A stretch of 64,000 nt of DNA from Opitutus sp. (GCA_009695305.1 SIBG01000010.1:1646-65645), one strand, 5' to 3'. Positions 727-24,425 are shown, counted from the first letter of the stretch. Made by a program: numbers and translations. Notes: generated by a model not told the origin, from the letters alone.

Positions 727-3700
727 TCAGAACCGACCGTTCACGCCCGCCGTTACCGTCACGAAGTTGATCGTCGTGCGGCGCATGCGGTCCTTGTAGC
801 CGACATACCAGCGCTGGGGCTCGTTGAGGACGTTGGAGGCATCGAGCGTGAAGCCGAGGTTGCCACGCTGCTGGTAGCCAAAGCCGAGGTTGAGCGTTTT
901 CATCGAGTAGCGGAACTGGCTCAGCGCCGGATTGTTGGCGTTGAAGGAGGTGCAGTTTTCACCCGTGAAGTTGTAGAGCGCGCGGGCACTGAATTTGTGG
1001 TAGCGCCAGTTGAGCGAAGCGTTGGCCGCGTGCGGGATGAAGTTCGCGATGTCGCGGCGCGTGAGGTAGCGGGTGCCATCGCGCAGGCCGTGCTGGTCGG
1101 TCCAACTGTAGTTGAACGAGGCAGCGAGGCCCTTCAGTGCGCCGGGAAGAAAGGTGAGCTGCTGCTGGTAGGAAAACTCCCAACCTTGGGCGACCACCGT
1201 GCCGGCGTTGAGCGAAGTGCGCTCGGTGAAGCCTTGGTAGTCGCCGTCGTAGCCGTTGTCCAAGCCGGCGGGAATGATGCGCGCTTCCTGGTTCGTGATG
1301 ATGAAATCCCGGATGTCCTTGTGAAACCAGCCGAAGGTCAGGCTGCCGACGGGCTCGAAATAATATTCGAGCGTGGCGTCCCAGTTCTTCGCCTGCTGCG
1401 GCTTGAGGCCCGGGTTGTTCACGGTGAGACGCTGGTTGACCTCGTCGATGCTCTCGCCGGGCAGGAGGTTGCCGAGCGGGGCGCGACCATAGCTCGTGGA
1501 ATAGCTGACGCGGGCCTTGAGATTTTTCGTGAGGTCGTGAAATGCGTGAATGCTCGGGAATTTCTGGTCGAACTTGCCGAAGAGCGTGCGGTCGGTGTTG
1601 GCGTAGTCGCGCGTGGCCGAGCCGATGGGATCGGCGAGTTGCTGCGCAGCCGTGCTGACCACGCGGGCGCGCACCCAGCCGAAGCTCTTGGTGCGGACCT
1701 GCTCCATGCGGATGCCACCGAGGTAGCCGGTGCGGCCAAGCCAGCCATTGCGGCCCAAGCGGCCCGACGCCATCGCATAGACGGCACCAATCGACTCCGT
1801 AACGCCGTTCGTGCCAGTGTATTTATTCTGCTCGTTGTAATATAAGTCCTCGTTCCAGAGCGAGGGGTCGGTCGGGCGACCATCGGTGGTAAACATGTGC
1901 GCCTGCCAGACCGGGATCTTTCGTCCGGTCTGGGTCAGGTCGTAGCTCACGTAGCTCGAATCGGGCGCGAAGTGGACGCTAGGATCGTAGGCGGCGACTG
2001 CCTTGGGCACCCACCGGTGCCGATCCTTGCCCCATTGATCCATTTGCAGGGAGCGCCAGTGGAGGCCGGTCTTCAAAAACGTTGGCGCGGCGAGCGGAGT
2101 CGTATAGCGCGCATCGAAGCGAAACTGTTTTTGCAATTGATCCTGCTCGTTGCGGTTCTGCACGAGGCCATCGGTGGCGCGCGGGAGGTAGTTGTTGGGG
2201 TTGGTGAAGTCGGGGCCGCCGTTCTGGATAAACTTTGGATGGAGCTCGTTCTGGCTTTGGTCGAGGATCCAGCCGGCGCCACCGAAGAACACGGCGCGGC
2301 CCGGCACCTGCGCGGCCGGGTCGAAGAGGCGCATGTTGAGCGTGCCACCGCGACCATTGCCGTTGTTGAGTGTCGTGCGCGCCACGCCGCCGGTGTATTC
2401 GATGAGCCACTTGGCATAGGTGTGCTCGCCCGTAAAATCGACGCGACCCATGCGGACGTAGTAGTTGAGCGGGCCGTCCATTTGCACGTCGATGTTGTTC
2501 GTGTTCGTGGCGGCGGCGGACGTGCTCGGAATCGCGCGCACGGTCGTGAGCACATTGGTGAAGCCACCAGGGACGATGCCGGTGGTGGCGCTCGGCACCT
2601 GGGTGGTGCTGTTACCGGAGGCGGCGGCCGTCACACGCACGCGCCGGCGCATCCGCTCAAAGTTGTCGTTCTCCGTGGCCGAGAGGGAAAACTTCGTCGT
2701 GGACGACCACTTGAAGTCGGTCCGGACGGCGATGCTCTGCTGCTTGCGGTTGTTGATATTGTCCCACGTCTGATAGTTGAAGACGGGGGCGGGACCATTG
2801 AGCAGGTTGGTGCGATCAAAGATGGTTTCAAAGCCGCCGACGGCGTTTTCCGAATAAAAAATATTCACCGAGGTCCCGAGGTTGCGCTCGCCGCCGAAGA
2901 CGCTGAACACCTGTTGGCGGGTGAGGTTGAGCACGGGGTGCGCGCGGTGCTGGGCGCGCCACGGGGTCTCCTCGAAGAACGACGGGGCCATACGGGCGGC
3001 AAAATTATAGGTGGTCCGGCTGTTTTCCTTCATGCTGAAGGTGGAGCGCGATTTGAAATTGATCGTGCCGCCGAGGGAGTCGGCACCCTTGTCGGGGGTC
3101 TGGCCCTTGATCAGCTCGAGGCCCTCGAACATCGCGCCGGTGATCGACTGAAGCTCAAAGCTGCGGTTGGTGCCGAGCGACGTCAGCGAGCCGCCGTCGA
3201 CGGTGACGTTGTTGAGCGTGGGGTCCATGCCGCGGATATTGAAACGATAAGCCAGGCCTTCATCGGTCGGGCTGCCGGCCACACCGGGGAGGCGCATGAC
3301 GACTTCGCCGGCGCTCATGTTGGGCAGGTAGCCGAAGGAATCCATGGCGATCACATCCTTAACGTTGTCGGCGTTGCGTTTTTCGGTGATCATGGCCGCA
3401 TTGCCCTCGCGCTCACCGGTGACCTTGAACGCCTCGAGCTTGTAGATGCCGGTCGTGAGTTCGAAGTCGCGGGTGAGATTCTGGCCGGCACCGAGGGCGA
3501 CGGTCTGGCGCACGGGATCGAGTCCGATATAGGTGACGACGACCTCGTGGGTGCCCGCGGGCACGCCCGGGAGATTATAGCGACCGGCGTTGTTGGTGAA
3601 TGTGGTGAGGTTGAGGGCCGGCACGGACACCATGGCACCCTCCAGCTGGTTGCGCGTGGCGGAGTTGCTCACCGAGCCGGAGACGCCGCCGGTCTCGGCG

Positions 3701-3789: not shown

Positions 3790-4040
3790 GATCAGGTTGC
3801 GGGATTTAATAGGGGGTAGGTTACTTAAACGTGATGGTCGAAATCGGAGTGAGGGAAAACGCCGGATGGGCAAAAAAAATCCGCGCCGACTGGCAGGGAT
3901 GAAGGGCACGCCAGTTCTCGCCACCGCGCATAGGCGGTGCAAGCTTCATCTCGCGCGCCGAACGGGCGCATCGGGCCACTCCCCGACCGTTGGAGTCGGC
4001 CAACTGCGGGCGGAAAATCTCTCCGCGGCAGCGGGCCGCC

Positions 4041-13168: not shown

Positions 13169-14320
13169 TCAAGCACGCAATGCTTCCGCGACCTGCATCA
13201 CCCGCAGCGTGTTGCCGCCCCACAGCTTCGCCAGGTCCGGCTCGCTCCACCCGCGCGCGACCAGTGCCCGCGTGATGTTCGGAAAGTCCGCCACGTCGCG
13301 CAGGCCGGCGAAGCCGCCTCCGCCGCCATCGAGGTCGCACCCGATGCCCACGTGGTCGATGCCCGCTACCGTCACCGCCTGCTCGATGTGCCGGATGAAA
13401 TCGTCGAGCGTCACGGGCGGGTTCGGATGCTCCCGACACACCCGGTCGTAATCGCGGTCTTCCGCGGCCGTTGTCGCCGGGGAGAAGATGCTGTGCTGGT
13501 GTCGGAGCAGCACTTCGGTAATCGCCGCCGTGCGGCCGTTGTCCGGCGCGGTCACGAGCGCGACCGGCAGCGCGTTGATCTGGATCACCCCGTCTTTCGC
13601 CGCGAGCACGCGGAGCAATTCGTCGCCGACATTGCGCGGGTGGTCGGCCATCGCGCGCGGGCCACTGTGCGAAAGCACGACGGGGGCACGCGAATGCTCC
13701 AGCAAATCGCGAAGCGCACCGTCGCTCGCGTGCGAGGCGTCAAGCACGAGGCCGAGTCGGTTGCACTCCGCCACGACCTCCCGCCCCAGCGGACTCAACC
13801 CACCCCACTCCGCGCCACGCGGGTCGGTCGAGGAGTCGGCCACGTCGTTATTGAGGCTGTGCGTCAACCCGAGCATCCGCACCCCGAGGTCGAAGAACGT
13901 CTGCACGTGGCCCGGGTCGCGCCCGAGGGAGTAAGCGTTCTCGACGCTGAGGTAAATCGCGCGCTTCCCTTCCGCCTTCAGCCGCAGCCCGTCGTCCGCC
14001 GTCAGCGCCAGCCCGCACTCGCCAGCATTTTCCTGCACGACCGTCCGCGTCCGCTCAAAACACCGCACCGCCCGTTCGTGGGCCGCCTGCCAGCCCGCCG
14101 GTGTCCGCGCGAGCTGCCCCACGTAAACCGCGAACACCATCGCATCCATCCCGCCGGCGCGCATCCGCGGCAGGTCAATTTGCGAATGATCCAACCCGTA
14201 ATCGTGCCGCGCGGCGAAATCCCACCCCGCGCGCATCAGGCTCGCCGTCGGCGTGTCGCTGTGCGTGTCGATCGTGAAGAGCCGTTCGTGGAGCGTGGAG
14301 TCGTTGGAGTGCATCACCAT
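13169..14320 (-). CDS. membrane dipeptidase (peptidase M19 family), cytoplasmic-type paralog
   Basis: FTIDTHSDTP, LGLTHSLNND, NRLGLVLDASH, VVLSHSG and GIGCDLDGGG are M19 metal/active-site blocks. No signal peptide. Confidence 0.85.
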   Translation of the reverse strand: MVMHSNDSTLHERLFTIDTHSDTPTASLMRAGWDFAARHDYGLDHSQIDLPRMRAGGMDAMVFAVYVGQLARTPAGWQAAHERAVRCFERTRTVVQENAGECGLALTADDGLRLKAEGKRAIYLSVENAYSLGRDPGHVQTFFDLGVRMLGLTHSLNNDVADSSTDPRGAEWGGLSPLGREVVAECNRLGLVLDASHASDGALRDLLEHSRAPVVLSHSGPRAMADHPRNVGDELLRVLAAKDGVIQINALPVALVTAPDNGRTAAITEVLLRHQHSIFSPATTAAEDRDYDRVCREHPNPPVTLDDFIRHIEQAVTVAGIDHVGIGCDLDGGGGGFAGLRDVADFPNITRALVARGWSEPDLAKLWGGNTLRVMQVAEALRA

Positions 14321-14330
14321 GATTTTGTCG

Positions 14331-14374
14331 GTCGGGGTTTAGCCCCGACACGTCGGGCGTAAAGCCCGACCTAC
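14331..14374. repeat. REP doublet (same family as 7224..7295)
   Basis: GTCGGGG-TTTA-GCCCCGAC AC GTCGGGC-GTAAA-GCCCGAC CTAC. The CTAC overlaps the stop codon of the downstream dipeptidase gene. Confidence 0.7.
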
Positions 14375-15606
14375 AGCCCGTTGCGCCGCTTCGCCAGCTC
14401 CTCCGCGGCGTGCAGGAGGCGCAGCGTGTTGCCGCCCCAGATTTTTCCCACGTCGGCCTCCGACACGCCATGCTTCAGCAGCGCGAGGGTGATCTTCGGG
14501 TAGTCGCTCACATCCTCGAGCCCGACCACGCCGCCGCCATCCATGTCCGCGCCGATGCCAACATGCTCGGCGCCCGCGATGTCGATGGCGTGAAAGAGGT
14601 GCTTCAGAAAATCGTCGAGCGTCGCCCGCGGGATTTTGAACTGTTCCGCCAGCTTCTGGCCCGCGAGGGATCGCTCGACTCGCTGCGCACCCGTCAGACT
14701 GCTCCCGGCGTATTTCGCGGTGAGCCTGGCTTTGGCCGCATTGAACTCGGGATTGATCGGCACCGGAATCATGAACTCGCTCACCGTGTTCATCTGGATG
14801 ACGCCGCCGTGCGCAGCGAGTTCGCGCATGAGCTCGTCCGTGACGTTGCGCGGGTGCGAACAGATCGCCTTGCAGGCGGAGTGCGTGAGGATCAACGGCG
14901 TCTGCGAGAGCGTGATAAGTTCGTGCAGCACGGTGTCGGCGGAATGCGAGGCGTCGATGACGAGGCCGAGGCGGTTGCATTCCTAGACCGCGTCCCGGCC
15001 GAGCGGGCTGAGGCCGTGCCACTCGGGGCCCGCGGTCGGCTGCGAGGAATCGCCGAGGTCGTTGTTGCCGTTGTGGACGAAACCAAAAAATCGCGCGCCG
15101 AGCTGGTGGTAAGTTTTGAGCAACGTGAGGTCCTGGCCGATCGCGTAGCCGTTCTCGACACTGAGGTAGAGAGCGCGTTTGCCCGCCGCCATGAGGCGCG
15201 GACCGTCGGCCGCGGTGAGCGCCAGTCCGCATTGCTCCGGGAAACGCTCGGCCACGGCCTGCACGCGCCGGAAGGTGCGCAGGGCGTTGTCGCGCACGGC
15301 CGCGTAGCCTTCCGGTGTGCGCGGACCTTGATCGACGTAGACGGCGAAGACGCCCGCCTTCAGCCCGCCGTCGCGCATCCGCGGAAAATCCAGCTGCGAA
15401 AAATCCGTCGCGCGGTCGTGGCGTTGCGCGATGTCCCAGTCGGGGCGGCGGAGGCTGAGCGTCGGCGTGTCGATGTGCGTGTCGATCGTGAAGATCCGCG
15501 CATGCCACGCCGCGGCGCGGGCGGCGAGTTCGGCGTCCGTTTCGGCGCAGAGCGCGGGAAGCAACGCGAGGGTGAGCAGTGAAAACGAAGAGCGAGCTAG
15601 GTTCAT
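14371..15606 (-). pseudogene. M19 dipeptidase paralog with signal peptide, interrupted by one in-frame TAG
   Basis: ORFs 14983..15810 and 14371..14931 are in the same frame. The TAG at 14983..14985 splits ...GLSPLGRDAV*ECNRLGLVIDASHS, which is collinear with the paralog's GLSPLGREVVAECNRLGLVLDASH. The ATG at 15606 gives MNLARSSFSLLTLALLPALCA. Confidence 0.8.
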
Positions 15607-15916: not shown

Positions 15917-16864
15917 ATGTCCAACCCCTCCGTCGAAAACGTCGTCATCATTGGCACTGGCTGCGCTGGCCTCACCGCCGCCATCTACACGGCACGCGCC
16001 AGCCTCAATCCGCTCGTCCTCGAAGGCCCCCTGCCCGGCGGCCAGCTCACGACGACGAGCGAAGTGGAAAACTTCCCCGGCTTCCCGCACGGCGTGGACG
16101 GCTTCCAGCTCACGCAAAACATGCGCGAGCAGGCCACCCGCTTCGGCACCCGGTTTGAGTCGGCGCTCGTCACTTCGGTCGATTTCACCTCGATGCCGCG
16201 CAAACTCGTGACGGCTGACCGCACGATCCTCGCGAAGACCGTCATCATCGCCACCGGCGCCTCGCCGCGCCTCACCGGCATCCCCGGCGAAAAGGAACTC
16301 TACGGCGGCAAGGGCGTGACGACCTGCGCGACGTGCGACGGCGCGTTCTATAAAAAAATGGAGGTGGCGGTGCTCGGCGGTGGCGACAGCGCCGCGGAGG
16401 AGGCGCTCTTCCTCACGCGTTTCGCGAGCAAAGTTTATCTCGTCCACCGTCGCGACACGCTCCGCGCCTCGAAGATCATGGCCGACCGCGCGACCTCGCA
16501 CGAAAAAATCCAACCGGTCTGGGACAGCATCCCCCTCGAAATCCTCGGCGTGAAAGAAGGCGCCGTCAGCGGCCTGAAAATCAAACACGTGAAAACCGGT
16601 GCCGAGTCCGTGCTGCCCGTGAAAGGCATCTTCGTGGCCATCGGCCACATTCCGAACACAGGCCCGTTCGCGCCGCCGCTCGAAGTTGACGAGGGCGGCT
16701 ACTTCAAGCCGCAGCCCGGCTCGCAGGTGCAGACGAACGTCCCCGGCGTTTACGTCGCGGGCGATTGCTCCGACCACGTCTACCGCCAGGCGATCACCGC
16801 TGCCGGCATGGGCTGCGCCGCCGCGATCGACGCCGAGCGCTGGCTGGCCGAGCACCACGCGTAG
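15917..16864 (+). CDS. trxB: thioredoxin-disulfide reductase
   Basis: [13 protein letters not shown], the redox CATCDG motif, and [10 protein letters not shown]. Confidence 0.95.
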
Positions 16865-16917
16865 AGGAGACGATGTCTGAGCTGTGAGAGAGCTGTGGGA
16901 GGGGCTTTATGCCCCGA
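16766..16917. repeat. copy A of a 152-bp direct repeat (trxB 3' end + REP half)
   Basis: Matches 19735..19886 at 149 of 152 positions in a hand alignment, with a constant offset of 2969 bp. Confidence 0.9.
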
Positions 16918-17590
16918 CTTAAAAATTTCCATTAATTCAATCGGGGCATAAAGCCCCTCCCACAGTGACAAACCCTGATCCGCTGCCACCGAATCCAGGC
17001 TACTGTGCTCTGCGGCGACATCGCTGGTCCGCTGGCGGTTTCGACTATTTCGTAACGATCAACCTGCACCGCCCAGCCGCGGGATTGAGCGAGCCAGCTC
17101 TGCTCGCAGCGCTCGATCACCAGCGCCTCACACTCGAAGCCGAAGGACACTGGAGCGTCCGCACATGGGTCGTGATGCCCGATCATCTTCATGTGCTCTT
17201 CACGCTGGGCGGAAAAATTTCCCTCGCCGATTGTCTGCGCCTGTTCAAGGGCCGGCTGTCACCCGCGCTCCGGGCACATCGGTTGGCGTGGCAAGATGGC
17301 TATCACGAACATCGCATGAGACCCGAGGAAGACCGCCTGCCGGTCTTCCTCTACATTTTCCTAAACCCGTATCGCGCGAAACTCATTTCAGTGTCGGAAA
17401 AATGGCCGGGATATTTCTGCGCGGTCGAAGACTGGGGTTGGTTTGGCGGTCTCACGAATGCCGACGTGCCTTATCCCAAATGGCTGGGATGAGGACAGCC
17501 GGGGTGCTGGACTCCAAACTGTGAGAGGGGCTTTATGCCCCGATTGGAATTTCATCTCAACCCAATCGGGGCGTAAAGCCCCTCCCACAG
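16893..17590 (+). mobile_element. REP doublet - RAYT - REP doublet unit
   Basis: The Y1 transposase-like ORF is flanked on both sides by inverted pairs of CTGTGGGAGGGGC-TTTAT-GCCCCGA (16893..16965 and 17519..17590). Confidence 0.8.
16965..17492 (+). CDS. REP-associated tyrosine transposase (RAYT, IS200/IS605 Y1-like)
   Basis: YFVTINLH, the HUH motif in VVMPDHLHVLF, and catalytic-Tyr region YIFLNPYRAKL. GTG start inside the REP. Confidence 0.85.
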   Translation: MTNPDPLPPNPGYCALRRHRWSAGGFDYFVTINLHRPAAGLSEPALLAALDHQRLTLEAEGHWSVRTWVVMPDHLHVLFTLGGKISLADCLRLFKGRLSPALRAHRLAWQDGYHEHRMRPEEDRLPVFLYIFLNPYRAKLISVSEKWPGYFCAVEDWGWFGGLTNADVPYPKWLG

Positions 17591-17597
17591 TTTCAGA

Positions 17598-19676
17598 TCA
17601 TCTTTCGAACCCGATCTTCTTGCGCAGCGCCTTGAAGCGCGGTTCGTCGCGGAGAATGTCGTTCACCGGGTCGACCTTGAGAAACCAGCACGCGGCATCG
17701 ATATCTTCGTAGCATTTGTCCAGCCAGTCCAAGGCCTTCGCCTTGTCGCCCAGGCCAAGATAGACCATCACCCGCCATCCGGGGGCAACGAAGCGCAGTT
17801 TCTGTTTCTCCATTTCTTCAAAGCCGCGCAAAATTTCCTCGGCTTTGGCGCGGTCGCCCGCCACGGCATACGCGTAGCCGAGGATGGCGTCGCGAAAAGG
17901 ATGGTTATCCAGCGTCTTCGCTTTCTGCAACGCCGCGATGGCGGCGGCCGATTCCGTTTTGAACAGGGCGCAACTTCCCAACAGGTGATGGGCGGGTGCA
18001 AAGTTGCCGTCCAATTCCAGCACCTTGCGGGCTTGGGCGATCGCTTCGTCGTAGCGGCGCGCGTGGTAGAGCCACCAGCCAAGGTCGCACGCCATCAACG
18101 GCGAGAGCGGGTCCAGTGCGATCGCCTTCTTTTGGTTGGCGATCGACTCGTCAAACCGCGCGAGCATCGCCAGCACCCAGGCGTATTGATCATAGACGAG
18201 CGCGAGGTTGGGATTCAGCTCGATCGCACGCTTCATTTTTTCCTGCCCCGGCTCCCACTCGAAAAGAGCCACCTGCGCCAGCCCCAGCGAAAAATGCGCT
18301 TCGGCCAGATTGGGCGCGAGGGCGAGCGCTTGTTGCGCGAGTTCCTTTTGCTTCGTCCACGCCTCCTTGCCCGACATCACCCCCGGCTGGTAACCGAGGT
18401 TGTCGGCCAGGCCGCAATAGGCCAAGGCGTAGCCCGGATCCGCCTTGATCGCCTCGGTGAAGAATCGCTGGGCGTTGGTCCAGCCCTCGGCGGTGTTCTT
18501 CGCGAAATGGAAACGGCCGAGCAGGTAAAGGCGGTGGGCCTCCGGATTCTCGGTCGCTTTCTTTTCGAGCGATGGCTTGCCGGCGGAGAGCAACGTAATC
18601 TTCAGCGCCGCGGCCACGCGCTCGGCGACGTCGCGCTGCATCTTGAAGATGTCCTTGAACTCGGTGTCGTAGTCCTGCGACCACAGGTGCCGCTGGCTCG
18701 CGACGTCGATCAACTGCACCGTAATCCGCAACTGCTCGCCCGCCTTGCGCACGCTGCCCTCAAGCAGCGTCCCGACCCGAAGTTCCGCGCCGATTTCGGA
18801 GAAACTCTTGCCGGATTTCTTGGCGCGCTCGGACGAAGTGCGCGCGATGACTTCGAGTCCGCTGATTTTTGAGAGGCTGGACGTCAGCTCCTCGGTCAGG
18901 CCGCCCGCGAGGTATTCGTCCTTGGTGTCCGGGCTGAAATTATCGAGCGGCAGCACGGCGAGGCGGTGCGGATCGAGCGCGGTGGATTTGGCTGCTGCCA
19001 AATCCATGGGTCTTGAGGTTTGAGTTTTTGGTTCAACGGCGACCGACGCAGGCGCGGATTTACGGGTGGCGAAGAATCCAACGACGCCAATTACCACGCC
19101 GGCAAGCGCGGCCCACGCCCAGCCGGGCAAGCGTCGTTTGGACTGTAGGGCGGGGTCGCCGGACCCCGCCGCGGTTGACGACGCTGAAGACGGCGCGGTT
19201 CGGCGACCTCGCCCCACGACTGGCACGTCAGCCGGCGCAGCAAGCAGGCGTTTCACTTGCTCGACAAATTGCGTCGTCGGAAGCGCGCCGGGCAGGCGGG
19301 TCCACTGCACCCGCATGAATTCGGCGGGCACGGCCGCGCCGGACTCCGAGGTGTCGTCGATCACGACGGGCGCGAGAAACGGCACGCCTTCCAGCATCAG
19401 GTGCGTTTGCTCGATCGCCAGTTTCCATTCGAGCCGGAAGTAGCCTTTGCTCCGCGCCTGGGTGTTCGTCGAGATGATCGGCAGGAAGAGCGTGCAGTCG
19501 GCGATCTGCCGGCGGATTTTTTGGTCCCACGTGTCTCCGCCGCGCAATTCGTTCTGGTCGAACCACACCTCGACGCCATGGCTGCGCAGCGCCTCGGCGA
19601 TGCGCAGAGCGGCGGCGGTATCCTCGCGCGCGTAGCTGACGAAGACGGCGGTGGGTGATGTGGGAGATTCGGGCAC
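17598..19676 (-). CDS. TIR domain / single TM / TolB_N-like / TPR-repeat protein (paralog 1)
   Basis: GTG start. The TIR_2-like N-terminus reads [47 protein letters not shown]. It is followed by the hydrophobic helix [19 protein letters not shown], then [33 protein letters not shown], and then TPR-like repeats to the C-terminus. Confidence 0.8.
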
Positions 19677-19734
19677 GGATCGGAGTGAACTGTCAGCGAA
19701 CGTGGTGACGGCGTCGGGCGTAGACGAGGAGAAA

Positions 19735-19886
19735 TGCTCCGACCACGTCTACCGCCAGGCGATCACCGCTGCCGGCATGGGCTGCGCCGCCGCGATCGAC
19801 GCCGAGCGCTGGCTGGCGGAGCACCACGGGTAGTGGAGACGATGTCTGAGCTGTGAGAGAGCTGTGGGAGGGGCTTTATGCCCCGA
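19735..19886. repeat. copy B of the 152-bp direct repeat (orphan trxB C-terminal fragment + single REP)
   Basis: Encodes [31 protein letters not shown] plus a stop, identical in context to the trxB tail, followed by CTGTGGGAGGGGCTTTATGCCCCGA without an inverted partner. Confidence 0.9.
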
Positions 19887-19901
19887 TTTGAAGTCGCCAA
19901 A

Positions 19902-21194
19902 TCACCCCACCTCAAACCGCCGCGTCTGGATCGCGTTGCGGCCTGTCTTCAGCATGGGCCGCGGCTCCGGCTGGGCGTAGCCATTCAAATCTACGGCACG
20001 GGCACGCACTTCGTAACGGCCGGGGGCCAGGCCTCGGATCGATGCGGACCAAGAAACCATGCTGTAGCGCAGCGGCCAGGTTGCGGGCTGGCCGGTCACG
20101 GGATTGAAACCCAGAACCTCCCTGGCCGACACCCCGGCCGGGAAGATGTGACTCCAATCGGTGGGCGCATCGTCCAGCCGGCATTCCGTCCATTGCGCGT
20201 TCTGCCACGCTGGATCATCCTCGGAAAGTTCGCCGGGCTGGCCGTTGGCGGGACGTAACCAATATTCAACCCGCTGCAAACCCGACCAGCCAGCGATCGC
20301 GAGGCCACTCACGAACACGGGCTGGCCAACGGGAATTTTCCCGCTCACCTCGTCGAGATAGGCCGCCGTCTTGAGGTGCGATTCGGGATCGTTGTTGGCA
20401 ATCGCGTAGGTGTCGTTCGCCTTGAAATCGTTGGTGAGGACGATCTGCTGCAGCCACTTGATGGATTTGAATCCGTGCGACCAGGGAATGACCATCCGCA
20501 CCGGACCGCCGCGTTCCAGCGGGATCGGCGCGCCATTGAGCCGGTAGGCCAGAAAGGCGGGCAGCTCACCCGGCGGCGTTTCCATCGCGGCCGTGTAGCT
20601 CAACGAGGATTGGAATCTCTGCTTCGGGTCGTTGTTGTGAAATCCCCAGTAATAGATGCGGCGCACATTGGTCATCCGGCCGCAGAGCCGCAGCACCTCG
20701 CGCAGCGGCACGCCTTCCCACAAACCCTGCCCCAACGGCGTGGCAATATTCAGGCACTGCATGGCCTTGAGGAACTTCACCCCGTGCTTTCTTCCCAGTT
20801 CCATCAACGCGGCCAGGTCCAACGCGGTTCCGTCCGCGAGTGTCAGCGAGCGGGTGATGCTGGCCGGTAGTTTGACGATCTCATCGACCGTCGGATCGGC
20901 CACGATTTGCAGCCGCCACGTTTCCGGCGTGAGCCGGGCTTGAACGAGCGCGTCGCCGGTGAGCGTGAACGGCTTGGGATTGCCCCGGGACACGTCCTCG
21001 AACTTGTCCGCGGGGGTGAGAAAGGGATGCGGGTAAGTGGTCTTGGGTGGTCGCGGCGGTGCCTGCTTGGGTGCAACCGGAGTCGAAACCTCCGCGGCCA
21101 GCGCGGTGTTGAGCAGCCCCGCGGTCAGCGGGGCGGCAGCGAGGACGGATGTCCTGAGCATGAAGTCGCGGCGAGTGATGGGAGAGGGGGGCAT
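19902..21194 (-). CDS. Tat-exported molybdopterin-dependent oxidoreductase (sulfite-oxidase family)
   Basis: The ATG at 21194 gives MPPSPITRRDFMLRTSVLAAAPL (twin-arginine signal). Also an Oxidored_molyb-like core (KAMQCLN..., LAYRLNGAPIPLERGGPVRMVIPW..GFKSIKWL). Confidence 0.8.
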   Translation of the reverse strand: MPPSPITRRDFMLRTSVLAAAPLTAGLLNTALAAEVSTPVAPKQAPPRPPKTTYPHPFLTPADKFEDVSRGNPKPFTLTGDALVQARLTPETWRLQIVADPTVDEIVKLPASITRSLTLADGTALDLAALMELGRKHGVKFLKAMQCLNIATPLGQGLWEGVPLREVLRLCGRMTNVRRIYYWGFHNNDPKQRFQSSLSYTAAMETPPGELPAFLAYRLNGAPIPLERGGPVRMVIPWSHGFKSIKWLQQIVLTNDFKANDTYAIANNDPESHLKTAAYLDEVSGKIPVGQPVFVSGLAIAGWSGLQRVEYWLRPANGQPGELSEDDPAWQNAQWTECRLDDAPTDWSHIFPAGVSAREVLGFNPVTGQPATWPLRYSMVSWSASIRGLAPGRYEVRARAVDLNGYAQPEPRPMLKTGRNAIQTRRFEVG

Positions 21195-21302
21195 GATTGC
21201 CGATTTTCGATTTTCGATTGCCGATTGAGGCAGGACCAGGGCGATGAAGCGGAAAAGTGAGTCGCTCCGGTTGCTCAATTGGCAATCGCCCATCGGCAAT
21301 TC
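21195..21302. repeat. heptamer-array hairpin (AATCGAA family), two inverted arms
   Basis: Arm 1 (21195..21227) is GATTGCC GATTTTC GATTTTC GATTGCC GATTGAG. Arm 2 (21276..21302) is CAATTGG CAATCGC CCATCGG CAATTC, the inverse complement. It fills the gap between the TIR paralog 2 stop and the molybdoenzyme start. Confidence 0.75.
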
Positions 21303-23629
21303 TCAAAACAGCGGCGCGTTGTTCTTCGGGTCGTTGAGCAGCGCCTCGAACCGCGGGTCGCCGCGGAGCGGGGCATACAACGGGTCGTGTTTCATCTCAT
21401 AGATATTCAGCGAGCCCGGAATGCGCAGCAGCCGGGCAATTTCTCCGATGGCACGGTCTTTGTCACCGTTCCAGGCATCCACTTGGGCGCGCACCACGCT
21501 GATCCCTACGCCGACGAAAGCGTTGTGTGCCTCCGGCATATCCTCCGCTGCCCGGGCGATCCGGCGCAGCGCCTCGTCCTTGTTGCCCAGGATTGCCTCG
21601 ACGAGTGCGGCATCCCGCAGATGCTGGTTATTGTCCGGCTCGAGTTCAAGCCGCGCACGCAGCGTCGCGGGAATGGTTCCCAGTCGGGCACGCGCGCCGT
21701 CCAGATCGCCCTGGCTGCGGAAAACCGCCGCCGCGATCGTCGCCTTGGTGACATCGGGCAAACCTTCCGGGTCAGTGGGGGGATGGAGTCGATCCAGTCG
21801 GATAAACTCGGCGTAGTCGTTTCGTCGCAGCGCTTGGGTCATTCGCAGGCCGATGACCTCGGGCGATGACGCATCGCGGGCTTCCAGCCGAACGAGCAGT
21901 TCATCCGTGTCCCGGGTTGAACCGGTGGCGAGAAATGTCATCCGTGCAAGCTCCAACGCCCACTCCGGCCCGTCCGGCTGCAGCGCCACCAGGCGGCGTT
22001 GTTCCGCCAGCGCCTCGTCAAAGCGACGGACCATCCGGTAGGCCGACGCCAACACGCGGGCGGTCCCGGCATGGGTCGGGTCGAGCTGCGCCACTGTTCG
22101 CCGGGTGGCAATGTATTCGGGCCAACGACCTTGGATTAACTGGACAATGGCCAGCCGACTGCGTGTCTCGGCATCGTTCGGCTGGAGCCGCAGCAACTTC
22201 TCGAACTGCTCGCTCGCGCGAGCGTGATCCCTGAGGCCAAAATCAAAATAGACGCCGACCGCGCGGATCACCTCAGGCGATTCCGGCGCGAGCGCGCGCG
22301 CCCGGTCGATGGCGACCGTCGCTTTCGCCAGTCTGGCAGGTGTGGTGTCGACGTAGGCAACCCTCATTTCCACGTGCACGACCGCCAGTTCGCCCCACGC
22401 GATCGCAAACGCCGGATCGAGCGCTACGGCGGACTGGAGCAATGACTCCCGCTCTTGAAAAGATGCTTTCAATGATTTGTTGCTGCCTCTCGCCGCACGC
22501 GACTTGAGATAAAGATCGTAAGCGGCGGGATTCTCCGTCGGCCGCCGTGCGATCAGATTTTTTTCCTGCGGCGACAGCACGGTCTGGAGCGCACTGGCGA
22601 TGGCCTGGGCAATTTCGGACTGGATGGCGAAGACGTCGGTCAGTTTACGGGTGTAGGGCTGCGGCGACCAGATGTGGGTGTCGGTGCGGGCGTCGATCAG
22701 CTGGGCGCTCACCCGCACGGAGTCGGCCGCTCGCCGCACGCTGCATTCCAGAATATAGGTGACGCCGAGTTCGCGCGCGATTTCAGGCATTTTCTTGGTC
22801 GTATCGCGGTAGCCTATCACCGACTGGCGCGAGACCACGCGCAGCTCGCGGATGTTTTGCAGATTGGTCAGCACGTCCTCGTGGATGCCGTCGGCGAAGA
22901 ACGCGTTTCCCTTGTCTGGGCTGAGATTCGTGAAGGGCAGCACGGCAATGGACTTGTCGTTCAAAATCGGTGCTGCGGGCCCGGCTTTCGTTTCAGTCGC
23001 GGTCTTCGGCGGTGCGGTGAGTGGCTCGGATTTGCGGGTCGTAAAAAATGCGACGGCGCCAATTGCCGCAGCCGCGACTACGACCCACGTCCAGATCGGG
23101 ACGCCGCGGTTCGTCGGGGAGCGGGCTTTCGAGCCCGGGTCGTCGCGGCCCATGGGCTGGAAAGCCCGTGCCGCTTCGTTCCCCGGTGCGAGGAGGTGTT
23201 TGATTTGCTCGATGAATTGCGGCGTGGGCAGGCCACCGGGGAGGCGGGTCCACTGCACGCGCAGAAATTCCGCGGGCACGAGCGCACGCGATTCGGCGGT
23301 GTCGTCGATGGCCACTGGCACGAGGAACGGCACGCCCGCGGCCATGTCGTGCGTGCGCTCGACGGCGAGTTTCCACTCCCGGCGGAAATAACCTTCGCGG
23401 CGCGCCTGCGTGTGCGCGGAGATCACCGCGAGGAAAAGCGTGCAGCCGCGGATCTGGCCGCGAATCTTTTCGTCCCACGTGTCGCCCCCGTGCAGCTCAT
23501 TCTCGTCGAACCACACTTCGACCCCAAAGCCGCGCAACGCCTCCGCGATGCGGCGGGCGGCGTCGGTGTCCTCGCGCGCGTAACTGAGGAAGACGGCGCG
23601 GGCGTTGGGTGATGGGGGGAGTCGGACAC
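21303..23629 (-). CDS. TIR domain / single TM / TolB_N-like / TPR-repeat protein (paralog 2), 5' end frameshifted
   Basis: The intact ORF 21303..23537 starts at a TTG inside the TIR domain. The same frame continues upstream as ...PPSPNARAVFLSYAREDTDAARRIAEA with no start codon. A GTG at 23627..23629, homologous to the paralog 1 start, is one frame off across a G6 run (23614..23619). Confidence 0.7.
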
Positions 23630-23720
23630 GGGACGGACGAAGACCAATGGAGAACGTGGCCGCCGCGCCGGGTGGAGACGAGGAGAAATACGGAGCAGGT
23701 TTTAACCGCTAGTCCTCGCT

Positions 23721-23749
23721 AATAAAAAACCCCAGAGCCAGTTTCTGGC
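23721..23749 (-). terminator. weak intrinsic-terminator-like hairpin upstream of TIR paralog 2
   Basis: On the minus strand, CCAGA-AACTGGC-TCTGG is followed by GGTTTTTTATT. No convincing upstream gene. Confidence 0.3.
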
Positions 23750-23903
23750 CTTCGCGCTTCACCGATTAGGCGAAGCACGCATGCCTTCCCTCACCGCTTG
23801 ATTCCGAGCATCAGCGAGAATTAAAGGCTCCGAACGACTGGGATGAACTGACTGCTCGCTCCTGCCCGCTTGCCGACGCGCCTGGCGCCCGCACACTTGG
23901 CGG

Positions 23904-24425
23904 ATGAGTTCCACCCGCCTCCGCGCGATCCACCGCACCCTCGGCATCCCCTCCGACTATGGCGCGCGGCGCGGCTTGGGGCCGCAGCGCGAGGCCGTGA
24001 GCTTGGTTTCCATCGGTCGCACGCCCGACGACGGCAAAATCCTCCGGCTCACCCCCCGCACCGCCGCCGCGTGGCAGAGAATGCGCGAGGCCGCCGCCTG
24101 CGATGGCCTCGTGCTGCTGCCGCTCTCCGGTTTCCGTAGCGTGCGACGGCAGACCCAAATCATCCGCAGCAAACTCGCCGCCGGTCAGACCATCGCCGAC
24201 GTCCTGCGGCTCGTCGCGGCCCCCGGCTACAGCGAACACCACACGGGCCGCGCGATCGACATCGGCTCGCCGGAAAACATCGAGCTCGACGAGCGCTTCG
24301 CGCGGACCGCGGCGTTCCGCTGGCTGCGGCGGCGGGCCGGGGCGTTCGGATTTCGACTCTCCTACCCGCGTCGCAATCCGCACGGCATTGCTTACGAACC
24401 GTGGCACTGGTGCTGGGGCGGATAG
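23904..24425 (+). CDS. D-alanyl-D-alanine carboxypeptidase family (peptidase M15B/VanY-like)
   Basis: PGYSEHHTGRAIDI and AYEPWHWCW zinc-ligand motifs. Confidence 0.8.
   Translation: MSSTRLRAIHRTLGIPSDYGARRGLGPQREAVSLVSIGRTPDDGKILRLTPRTAAAWQRMREAAACDGLVLLPLSGFRSVRRQTQIIRSKLAAGQTIADVLRLVAAPGYSEHHTGRAIDIGSPENIELDERFARTAAFRWLRRRAGAFGFRLSYPRRNPHGIAYEPWHWCWGG

Follow-up and report, generated by a model that had tools for sequence, protein, structure and literature searches.

A trxB gene tail and its REP duplicated within a resident REP/RAYT locus of Opitutus

In a 64,000-nt stretch of DNA from Opitutus sp. (GCA_009695305.1 SIBG01000010.1:1646-65645; hereafter, the window, whose own numbering is used below), the 3′ end of the thioredoxin reductase gene trxB and the repetitive extragenic palindromic (REP) sequence that follows it are present twice, as a direct repeat. 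Copy A closes trxB itself, while copy B is ectopic and lies between TIR1, a gene that encodes a protein with TIR and TPR domains, and a molybdopterin oxidoreductase gene (hereafter, the molybdoenzyme gene). The gene for a REP-associated tyrosine transposase (RAYT) and TIR1 are located between the two copies. We favour, as a reading that stands about an even chance of being right, a small local rearrangement in a resident REP/RAYT locus (a REPtron), in which copy B would be a lineage-specific, non-reciprocal copy of the native 127-nt flank and its REP. Comparison with related loci indicates that nothing was imported, since RAYT, TIR1, the molybdoenzyme gene and the TIR1 paralog TIR2 were already present.

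The repeat and its junctions

A repeat search of the window matched 16766-16923 to 19735-19892, i.e., 158 nt with 97% identity at an offset of 2969. In the MAFFT alignment, the copies differ at three of the first 152 positions and at five of the 158 overall. The three mismatches in the body of the repeat (copy A/copy B) are C/G at 16849, C/G at 16860 and A/T at 16865, and the two further ones, C/T at 16918 and A/G at 16921, are inside the REP tail. A repeat of such length cannot be due to chance. Codon 284 of trxB begins at 16766; thus, the repeat comprises 32 codons, the stop codon (16862-16864), a 28-nt spacer and the REP. Its left limit at 16766/19735 is abrupt, with a single shared T beyond which the similarity ends.

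An earlier note on this DNA had described the repeat by hand as 152 nt with three mismatches at the same offset; both methods agree with it and lengthen the repeat to 158 nt, and the reading frame confirms the content that it had assigned. The note was equally right about the sharp left junction at the trxB start of copy B, the ~58 nt of TIR1 leader that precede it, and the lone REP beside the molybdoenzyme stop codon (REP3a, without an inverted partner and 13 nt from the stop codon at 19902). The genes that it had named (trxB, RAYT, TIR paralogs and a molybdoenzyme) were recovered with Pfam and NCBIfam, and the two REP doublets with the repeat search. Additionally, it had taken copy B as an orphan trxB fragment and a 60-aa open reading frame at 19651-19833 as an artefact of it. 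This reading frame has no Pfam match, and public gene calls show no gene at the site; it is a spurious by-product of the junction, and neither it nor the orphan fragment should be annotated as a gene. The note had also argued that the repeat is too long for a target-site duplication, and this holds: such duplications are identical and about 2-14 bp long, whereas the repeat has 152-158 nt and 3-5 mismatches.

On the other side of the left junction, homology of the TIR1 leader to related leaders stops at 19734/19735, after GAGGAGAAAT, where the trxB tail begins. In an alignment of the upstream regions of TIR1, TIR2 and the related loci L162 and L014, the leaders of TIR2 and L162 read ...CGAGGAGAAAT↓ACG... 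(the arrow marks a junction or a cut) and then continue into a conserved upstream block. This block is found 5′ of TIR2 and of the TIR1 ortholog of L162, and it is missing 5′ of TIR1 in the window; the alignment thus indicates that the event removed the native upstream region of TIR1 at position -58. The left end itself reads as an illegitimate join at which the two sides share a single T as microhomology, the donor being ...GAT↓TGC and copy B ...AAA↓TGC; whether placed as AT↓T or ATT↓G, it is not C↓T. At the right end, the identity between the copies falls off exactly where the REP consensus does, with tails that read GATTG in the family consensus, GACTT in REP1a and GATTT in REP3a, the latter being nearer to the consensus. 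Because copy identity and REP consensus decay at the same place, the crossover point may be hidden inside the REP.

These junctions bear on whether the RAYT itself could have transferred its flank. Acting on REP1a as single-stranded DNA, it would have made one cut in the trxB tail, ~127 nt upstream, and a second at the REP or beyond it, and the resulting ~150-nt strand would have been moved to an acceptor site upstream of TIR1, which may have been a REP. A bona fide RAYT is encoded 50 nt away, a REP stands at the end of the repeat, and the C↓T-bounded half-REP heads (16882-16892, and the tandem units at 3623-3680 of locus L165) resemble products of cleavage and strand transfer. Moreover, E. 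coli TnpA_REP cuts single-stranded DNA at C↓T more than 400 nt from the BIME, and its authors proposed that flanking gene fragments could be taken up in this way (PMC3333891). Nevertheless, neither junction follows the C↓T rule of the E. coli and Stenotrophomonas maltophilia enzymes (PMC3333891, PMC8266576), which may not be the rule of this RAYT. Forcing a C↓T reading on the left junction (TGC↓TCC) needs a target AAATGC, but the homologous leaders of TIR2 and L162 read AAATAC; likewise, a donor cut at C↓T (16918/16919) at the right end predicts GAC in copy B, which reads GAT. Finally, no second REP with a duplicated flank was found in the window or in the examined loci. We consider flank transfer by the RAYT a serious alternative, but an unlikely origin of copy B.

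The source of the window is a metagenome assembly, from which alone the mismatches that distinguish the copies are read, and this leaves some room for an artefact, such as two strains joined into a chimera or a repeat that collapsed. The earlier note had itself named this danger. However, Logan contig L001 (2877 bp, three samples) consists of the unique 2817 bp and, at either end, exactly 30 nt (k-1) of a repeat copy, and it therefore spans both junctions independently. Two ENA contigs, 70.5 and 16.8 kb long, repeat the gene order of the window, and an exact-protein look-up showed the same order on all contigs with identical proteins; the event is present in all sampled contigs of the source population. 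Since merely 1 nt is common to the two sides where the leader meets the trxB tail, this junction does not derive from a repeat-induced misjoin, and k-mer overlap cannot produce it. In addition, the longest exact run within the repeat, 83 nt, is shorter than the large k values customary in metagenome assemblers, a general figure and not one taken from the settings of these contigs. An artefact can hardly be credited.

The REP/RAYT locus and its relatives

The window contains the REP core, GGGGCTTTATGCCCC, five times (16901+, 16943-, 17527+, 17568- and 19870+) against 0.11 occurrences expected, and all five are at this locus. Each REP reads CTGTG(G/A)GA followed by GGGGC-N5-GCCCC, and the conserved 5′ head, CTGTGGGA, stands beside a short hairpin and has GTGG rather than GTAG. 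REP1a and REP1b form REP doublet 1 (REPIN/BIME-like, 16893-16965), with a predicted single-stranded fold of -33 kcal/mol; REP doublet 2, between the stop codons of RAYT and TIR1, folds at -34 kcal/mol. Such a doublet gives a hairpin of ~30 bp, and a single REP gives one of 5 bp only. A search of Rfam returned only sub-threshold miRNA-like matches on the doublet hairpins, which we took as chance. Directly 5′ of both REP1a and REP3a there is a half-REP head, CTGTGAGAGAG (16882-16892 and 19851-19861), with C↓T at either side; it resembles a join of the loop C↓T site of one REP with the 5′ C↓T site of the next.

The assignment of the predicted transposase to the RAYT family is solid. It scores above the cutoff of its NCBIfam equivalog model and, marginally, of Pfam Y1_Tnp (23.3 bits vs 23), and it matches E. 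coli TnpA_REP (PDB 4ER8, E=7e-9) with alignment of the HUH motif (HLH with HMH) and of the catalytic tyrosine (YIFLNP with YIYINP). Many homologs of this RAYT lie on contigs of ~1 kb, which may reflect repeat-induced contig breaks.

REPtrons have been described as a tnpA_REP (RAYT) gene flanked by clusters of REP/BIME (REPIN) elements (Nunvar 2010, PMC2817692; Ton-Hoang 2012, PMC3333891; Bertels & Rainey 2011, PMC3116915). The present locus resembles them in its Y1 HUH enzyme, in the inverted REP doublets on both sides of RAYT, in the C↓T-bounded half-REP units and perhaps in the conserved REP head next to a short hairpin. Additionally, its RAYT has a fixed syntenic position, and a relative without RAYT (L014) keeps its REPs, as E. 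coli B2 strains do. It differs in its host, a member of the Verrucomicrobiota (Opitutaceae), in the GTGG head, and in the low number of REPs, confined to this locus in 64 kb. It also differs in holding an entire TIR-TPR gene within the REP-bounded interval and in having one REP with a 127-nt duplicated gene tail.

To place the locus in context, public genomes were scanned with the molybdoenzyme and metagenomes with trxB, and homologs of TIR1 and RAYT were looked up; this yielded about 90 related loci from Opitutaceae-like Verrucomicrobiota. Their conserved backbone is M19, trxB, VanY and Fur, with a trxB-VanY interval that ranges from about 50 bp to 5.7 kb and that reaches 7.0 kb in the window. 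The window's trxB is colinear with its orthologs in more than 85 loci (84-97% aa identity). RAYT, with REPs on both sides, is located between trxB and VanY in at least five lineages, among them L111, L166, L167-170 and L171 (a 6.5-Mb contig), and it adjoins trxB in L100; inverted REP doublets likewise surround it in L111, L166 and L167. Because trxB tail, spacer and REP are likewise contiguous in L166, L167, L111 and L100, copy A is the native copy.

A TIR1 ortholog convergent with trxB is found in L162 (trxB 96.8% identical at the aa level, with a 21-nt gap that holds neither REP nor RAYT) and in L014/L163, where a REP doublet and no RAYT lies between the two genes. The order in L014 is trxB, REP doublet, TIR1-like gene, molybdoenzyme gene, TIR2 remnant and VanY, the molybdoenzyme of L014/L163 being an ortholog with 86% aa identity in the equivalent position. 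Because RAYT, TIR1 orthologs and the L014 order are thus found at the locus in relatives, everything between the repeats is resident, and the order trxB, (REP/RAYT), TIR1, molybdoenzyme, TIR2 and VanY is older than the repeat. In a self-BLAST of each locus, a second trxB tail was found in none of the about 90. The copies diverge by 2% and the trxB tail of the closest relative by 11%; because the former value is well under the latter, the duplication is younger than the split from that relative.

A further locus, L165, contains a RAYT-REP-TIR1 unit in which RAYT is 77% identical and 5′-truncated and the N-terminus of TIR1 has 80% aa identity, with a REP doublet ~16 nt past the leader. This unit stands in a non-trxB context between 111-nt direct repeats that are 86% identical (L165 760-935 and 3545-3690), each composed of a REP doublet and tandem 18-nt half-REP heads bounded by AAC↓TGT. 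The genes that flank it have no counterpart in the window; thus, an empty site for the L165 copy is not definable.

The same comparison bears on an import of the segment. The earlier note had proposed a Campbell-type integration of a ~2.97-kb circle that recently delivered a TIR gene next to trxB; in more general terms, a circle or linear fragment from another strain (REP-RAYT-REP-TIR1-leader-trxB tail) would have entered a trxB-REP-molybdoenzyme chromosome by one homologous crossover in the trxB tail, either Campbell-type or as homology-facilitated illegitimate recombination. As with genomic islands integrated at att sites in the 3′ ends of tRNA or protein genes, the segment lies between direct repeats that hold a gene 3′ end, with the intact gene on one side and an orphan fragment on the other. 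The few mismatches could be allelic, two variant states are common to copy B and L014, and the L165 unit lies outside the trxB context, between REP-cluster repeats. Furthermore, TIR1 is mosaic and shares 58-60% aa identity with its orthologs, against 86-97% for trxB and the molybdoenzyme. However, only RAYT and the TIR-TPR protein are encoded between the repeats, where Pfam and NCBIfam revealed no integrase. The compositional scan found neither a break nor a foreign-DNA signal at the locus (GC 0.58-0.69), and the repeat is longer than typical att cores. Both RAYT and TIR1 occur at this site in relatives, and the sole other genome with the molybdoenzyme here already has a TIR1-like gene between it and trxB. 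The trxB-REP-molybdoenzyme empty site, which the note had suggested looking for, was not seen in any of the about 90 loci in the molybdoenzyme and trxB scans and exact-protein look-ups. Import is disfavoured, and we regard it as distinctly improbable. The circle of the earlier note does not survive this comparison, nor does the delivery of a TIR gene, given that TIR1 orthologs already adjoin trxB in L162 and L014/L163. Its view of the rearrangement as recent stands insofar as the event is younger than the split from the closest relative, and its caution that all relatives might share the duplicated structure is answered by the self-BLAST result.

Routes to copy B and their consequences

The most economical route to a local copy is one-ended REP-primed repair or replication template switching. 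At the start, a REP (REP3a) would already have stood upstream of the TIR1 leader, which would have continued as ...GAGGAGAAATACG... into native upstream DNA and then into the REP. A broken or stalled 3′ end carrying REP3a would have paired with REP1a, and copying would then have run leftward across the spacer and the trxB tail (127 nt). The new end would have been joined illegitimately to the leader, 58 nt upstream of the TIR1 start, through the shared T, with the right end settled within the REP-to-REP similarity. In this way, the copy would have replaced whatever stood between the leader and REP3a. That a REP already occupied the REP3a position beforehand is plausible, because the REP doublet of L165 has a similar place past its leader. 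The alternative that the earlier note had offered beside its circle, a REP-associated duplication-junction, comes broadly close to this route: the right end of the repeat is indeed in a REP, but the left junction is illegitimate and involves none.

Several observations weigh against one-ended copying. Among the related loci, no allele in the state before the event (TIR1 leader, native upstream DNA, REP, molybdoenzyme) was recovered, and the prior REP3a is drawn from analogy with L165 only. The 25-35 bp of anchor that such repair would have had is the lower limit for RecA-type pairing. All five mismatches are in the right-hand 75 nt, which is not expected of simple copying and subsequent drift. 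The polarity of the three in the body of the repeat, read against 55 relatives and L162, is ambiguous: L162 has the copy A states, and L014 has the copy B states at two sites. Being conflicting, polarity was left out of the evidence. Finally, the L165 unit stands in another genomic context; thus, mobility of the RAYT-TIR1 unit cannot be dismissed.

The observed junctions would also result from two steps, i.e., a tandem duplication of the 2969-bp unit 16766-19734 through an illegitimate leader-trxB join, followed by a deletion in which the second copy of RAYT-TIR1 was lost by exchange between REP1a of the second unit and a REP cluster upstream of the molybdoenzyme. The direct repeats of REP clusters that flank the L165 unit (111 nt, 86%) could support the deletion step. 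As Shyamala, Schneider and Ames reportedly described in 1990, REPs served as duplication join-points in the Salmonella his region, with REP-REP exchange duplicating the whole interval. The present case is alike in having a REP at one end of the duplicated stretch. It differs in that 152-158 nt are present twice, RAYT and TIR1 each being single-copy at the locus and the duplicated part 158 nt alone, and in that the other junction is illegitimate and without a REP; thus, a doubled interval is not observed. Moreover, two events are invoked where one is enough, tandem duplications usually collapse through their long repeat and so restore the original arrangement, and no intermediate was seen. From the end product alone, the two-step route and one-ended copying are hard to tell apart; we hold the two-step route to be rather improbable.

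We also weighed, as a doubtful possibility, that the REP-bounded interval is a composite unit that RAYT copies or moves with flanking or passenger DNA. Copy B would then be the product of a REP-distant cut by RAYT, and L165 a relocated unit with the TIR gene as passenger. Capture by IS91, ISCR or Helitron elements offers a partial parallel, in that an HUH enzyme is encoded nearby and the repeat ends with a copied piece of a flanking gene. In contrast to those elements, the RAYT is a Y1 enzyme without demonstrated rolling-circle transposition, the junctions are off the C↓T rule, and the piece is 127 nt long.

Whatever the route, TIR1 now has the antisense trxB tail, a REP hairpin and, on its own strand, the molybdoenzyme gene in front of it, and its conserved upstream block is gone. 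We infer that its expression depends on read-through or on a fortuitous promoter. A sigma-70 scan of 16700-24000 gave no promoter-like site, a result that is uninformative for this phylum.

The analysis documents a RAYT/REP locus in Opitutaceae whose position between trxB and VanY has been kept across many lineages. It also shows, at a datable point, how REP clusters remodel the DNA around them, with a gene tail copied together with its REP and a TIR-TPR gene stripped of its native upstream region; the same site in relatives presents loss of RAYT, REP relics and an internally deleted TIR paralog. If RAYT made copy B, this would be a rare natural case of a REP carrying flanking DNA, and if the composite-unit reading were true, the capacity for flank sequestering that Ton-Hoang et al. 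had proposed on in vitro grounds would gain in vivo evidence. As a product of ordinary repair, copy B would be a routine REP-associated scar. Either way, a 'mobile TIR cassette' should not be annotated here as an integrated element.

Features and neighbouring genes

The gene order along the window is M19 dipeptidase genes (-), trxB (+), REP doublet 1, RAYT (+), REP doublet 2, TIR1 (-) with its 58-nt leader, copy B, the molybdopterin oxidoreductase gene (-), TIR2 (-), VanY (+) and Fur (+). Gene identities were obtained by Pfam search, and the coordinates are collected in Table 1.

Table 1. Positions of the genes, REP elements and repeat copies in the window
Feature	Position	Strand	Basis or remarks
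trxB, thioredoxin reductase, intact	15917..16864	+	Pfam Pyr_redox_2, E=2e-46; last 32 codons and stop open copy A
Repeat copy A	16766..16923	+	trxB tail, stop, 28-nt spacer, half-REP head 16882-16892, REP1a 16893-16922
REP1b, inverted partner of REP1a	16936..16965	-	inverted repeat: 30 nt, 93% complementary, 13 nt between arms
RAYT, TnpA_REP type, REP-associated tyrosine transposase, 175 aa	16965..17492	+	NCBIfam NF047646, 86.4 bits vs cutoff 80
REP doublet 2 (REP2a+ 17516-17547, REP2b- 17562-17593)	17516..17593	.	inverted repeat: 32 nt, 94% complementary
TIR1, 692 aa (TIR domain, TM/TolB-like segment, TPR), convergent with trxB	17598..19676	-	Pfam TIR_2, E=1e-20, and TPR families
Retained TIR1 leader, 58 nt, between TIR1 start and copy B	19677..19734	-	homologous to leaders of TIR2 and of the L162 and L165 orthologs
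Repeat copy B (ectopic)	19735..19892	+	orphan trxB tail 19735-19833 including stop, spacer, half-REP head 19851-19861, lone REP3a 19862-19888
Molybdopterin oxidoreductase, sulfite-oxidase/MsrP-like	19902..21293	-	Pfam Oxidored_molyb, E=4e-23
TIR2, TIR1 paralog (39% aa), own leader kept	21303..~23640	-	Pfam and alignment
Conserved upstream block of TIR genes	23690..23830	-	stem-loop with T-run, ATTAGCG-type repeats; alignment and motif scans

Within the conserved upstream block, a motif with a 10-bp period, ATTAGCG(G/A)AGATTAGCG, is located at 23707-23723 (-). It is also present at 6550-6679 of L162, at 663-679 of L165 and upstream of trxB in L014. In relatives it is thus found repeatedly near trxB and 5′ of TIR-TPR genes, and it may represent an operator or a small family of repeats. 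The similarity (76%) of 23753-23823 of the window to L014 DNA upstream of trxB was considered as a second duplication of a trxB flank and rejected, as it traces to this short motif.

TIR1 has a mosaic relationship to its ortholog in L162 (6707-8800), with 86-88% nt identity in 18588-18982 and 19234-19735 and no detectable nt match elsewhere. The two proteins share 58% aa identity overall, while the neighbouring trxB products share 97%. This pattern points to rapid divergence or to an exchange of segments between TIR-TPR paralogs.

In TIR2 (23537-23650, -), the TIR domain is shifted by 1 nt relative to the frame of a conserved GTG start, shared with TIR1 and the L162 ortholog, and the A of CCCCCACATCA is absent from a C6 run. 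The sole in-frame canonical start, a TTG at 23537, would drop the first strand of the TIR domain. From the reading frames, TIR2 appears to be a frameshifted or a 5′-truncated gene, unless it carries a homopolymer sequencing error. Between the molybdoenzyme gene and VanY, L014 has an internally deleted TIR2-like remnant (3950-4015) in which the leader, TTTTTCCTCGTCTCCGCCCGG, runs directly into the final 15 codons, ...DPRFQAMLKKAGFAK and the stop; the deletion apparently occurred through TCTCCGC microhomology.

The trxB-VanY interval of the other relatives was surveyed by reading translations alone. In most of them it holds ordinary genes, whose products include a conserved protein of ~146 aa of unknown function, an oxidoreductase-like protein, long repeat-rich secreted-type proteins and large multidomain sensor-like proteins. 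On this ground, we rejected the idea of a defence island in this interval. A different repeat, AACGCTCAACGCTCAAG, occurs several times together with its inverted form in L014 (8040-8210 and 4130-4160) and in L165 (3715-3820), and not in the window. Upstream of trxB, at 13169-15606 (-), the window holds three tandem M19 dipeptidase reading frames of 383, 186 and 207 aa. Relatives have one gene whose C- and N-terminal halves correspond to the two shorter frames, which look like a split or frameshifted paralog.

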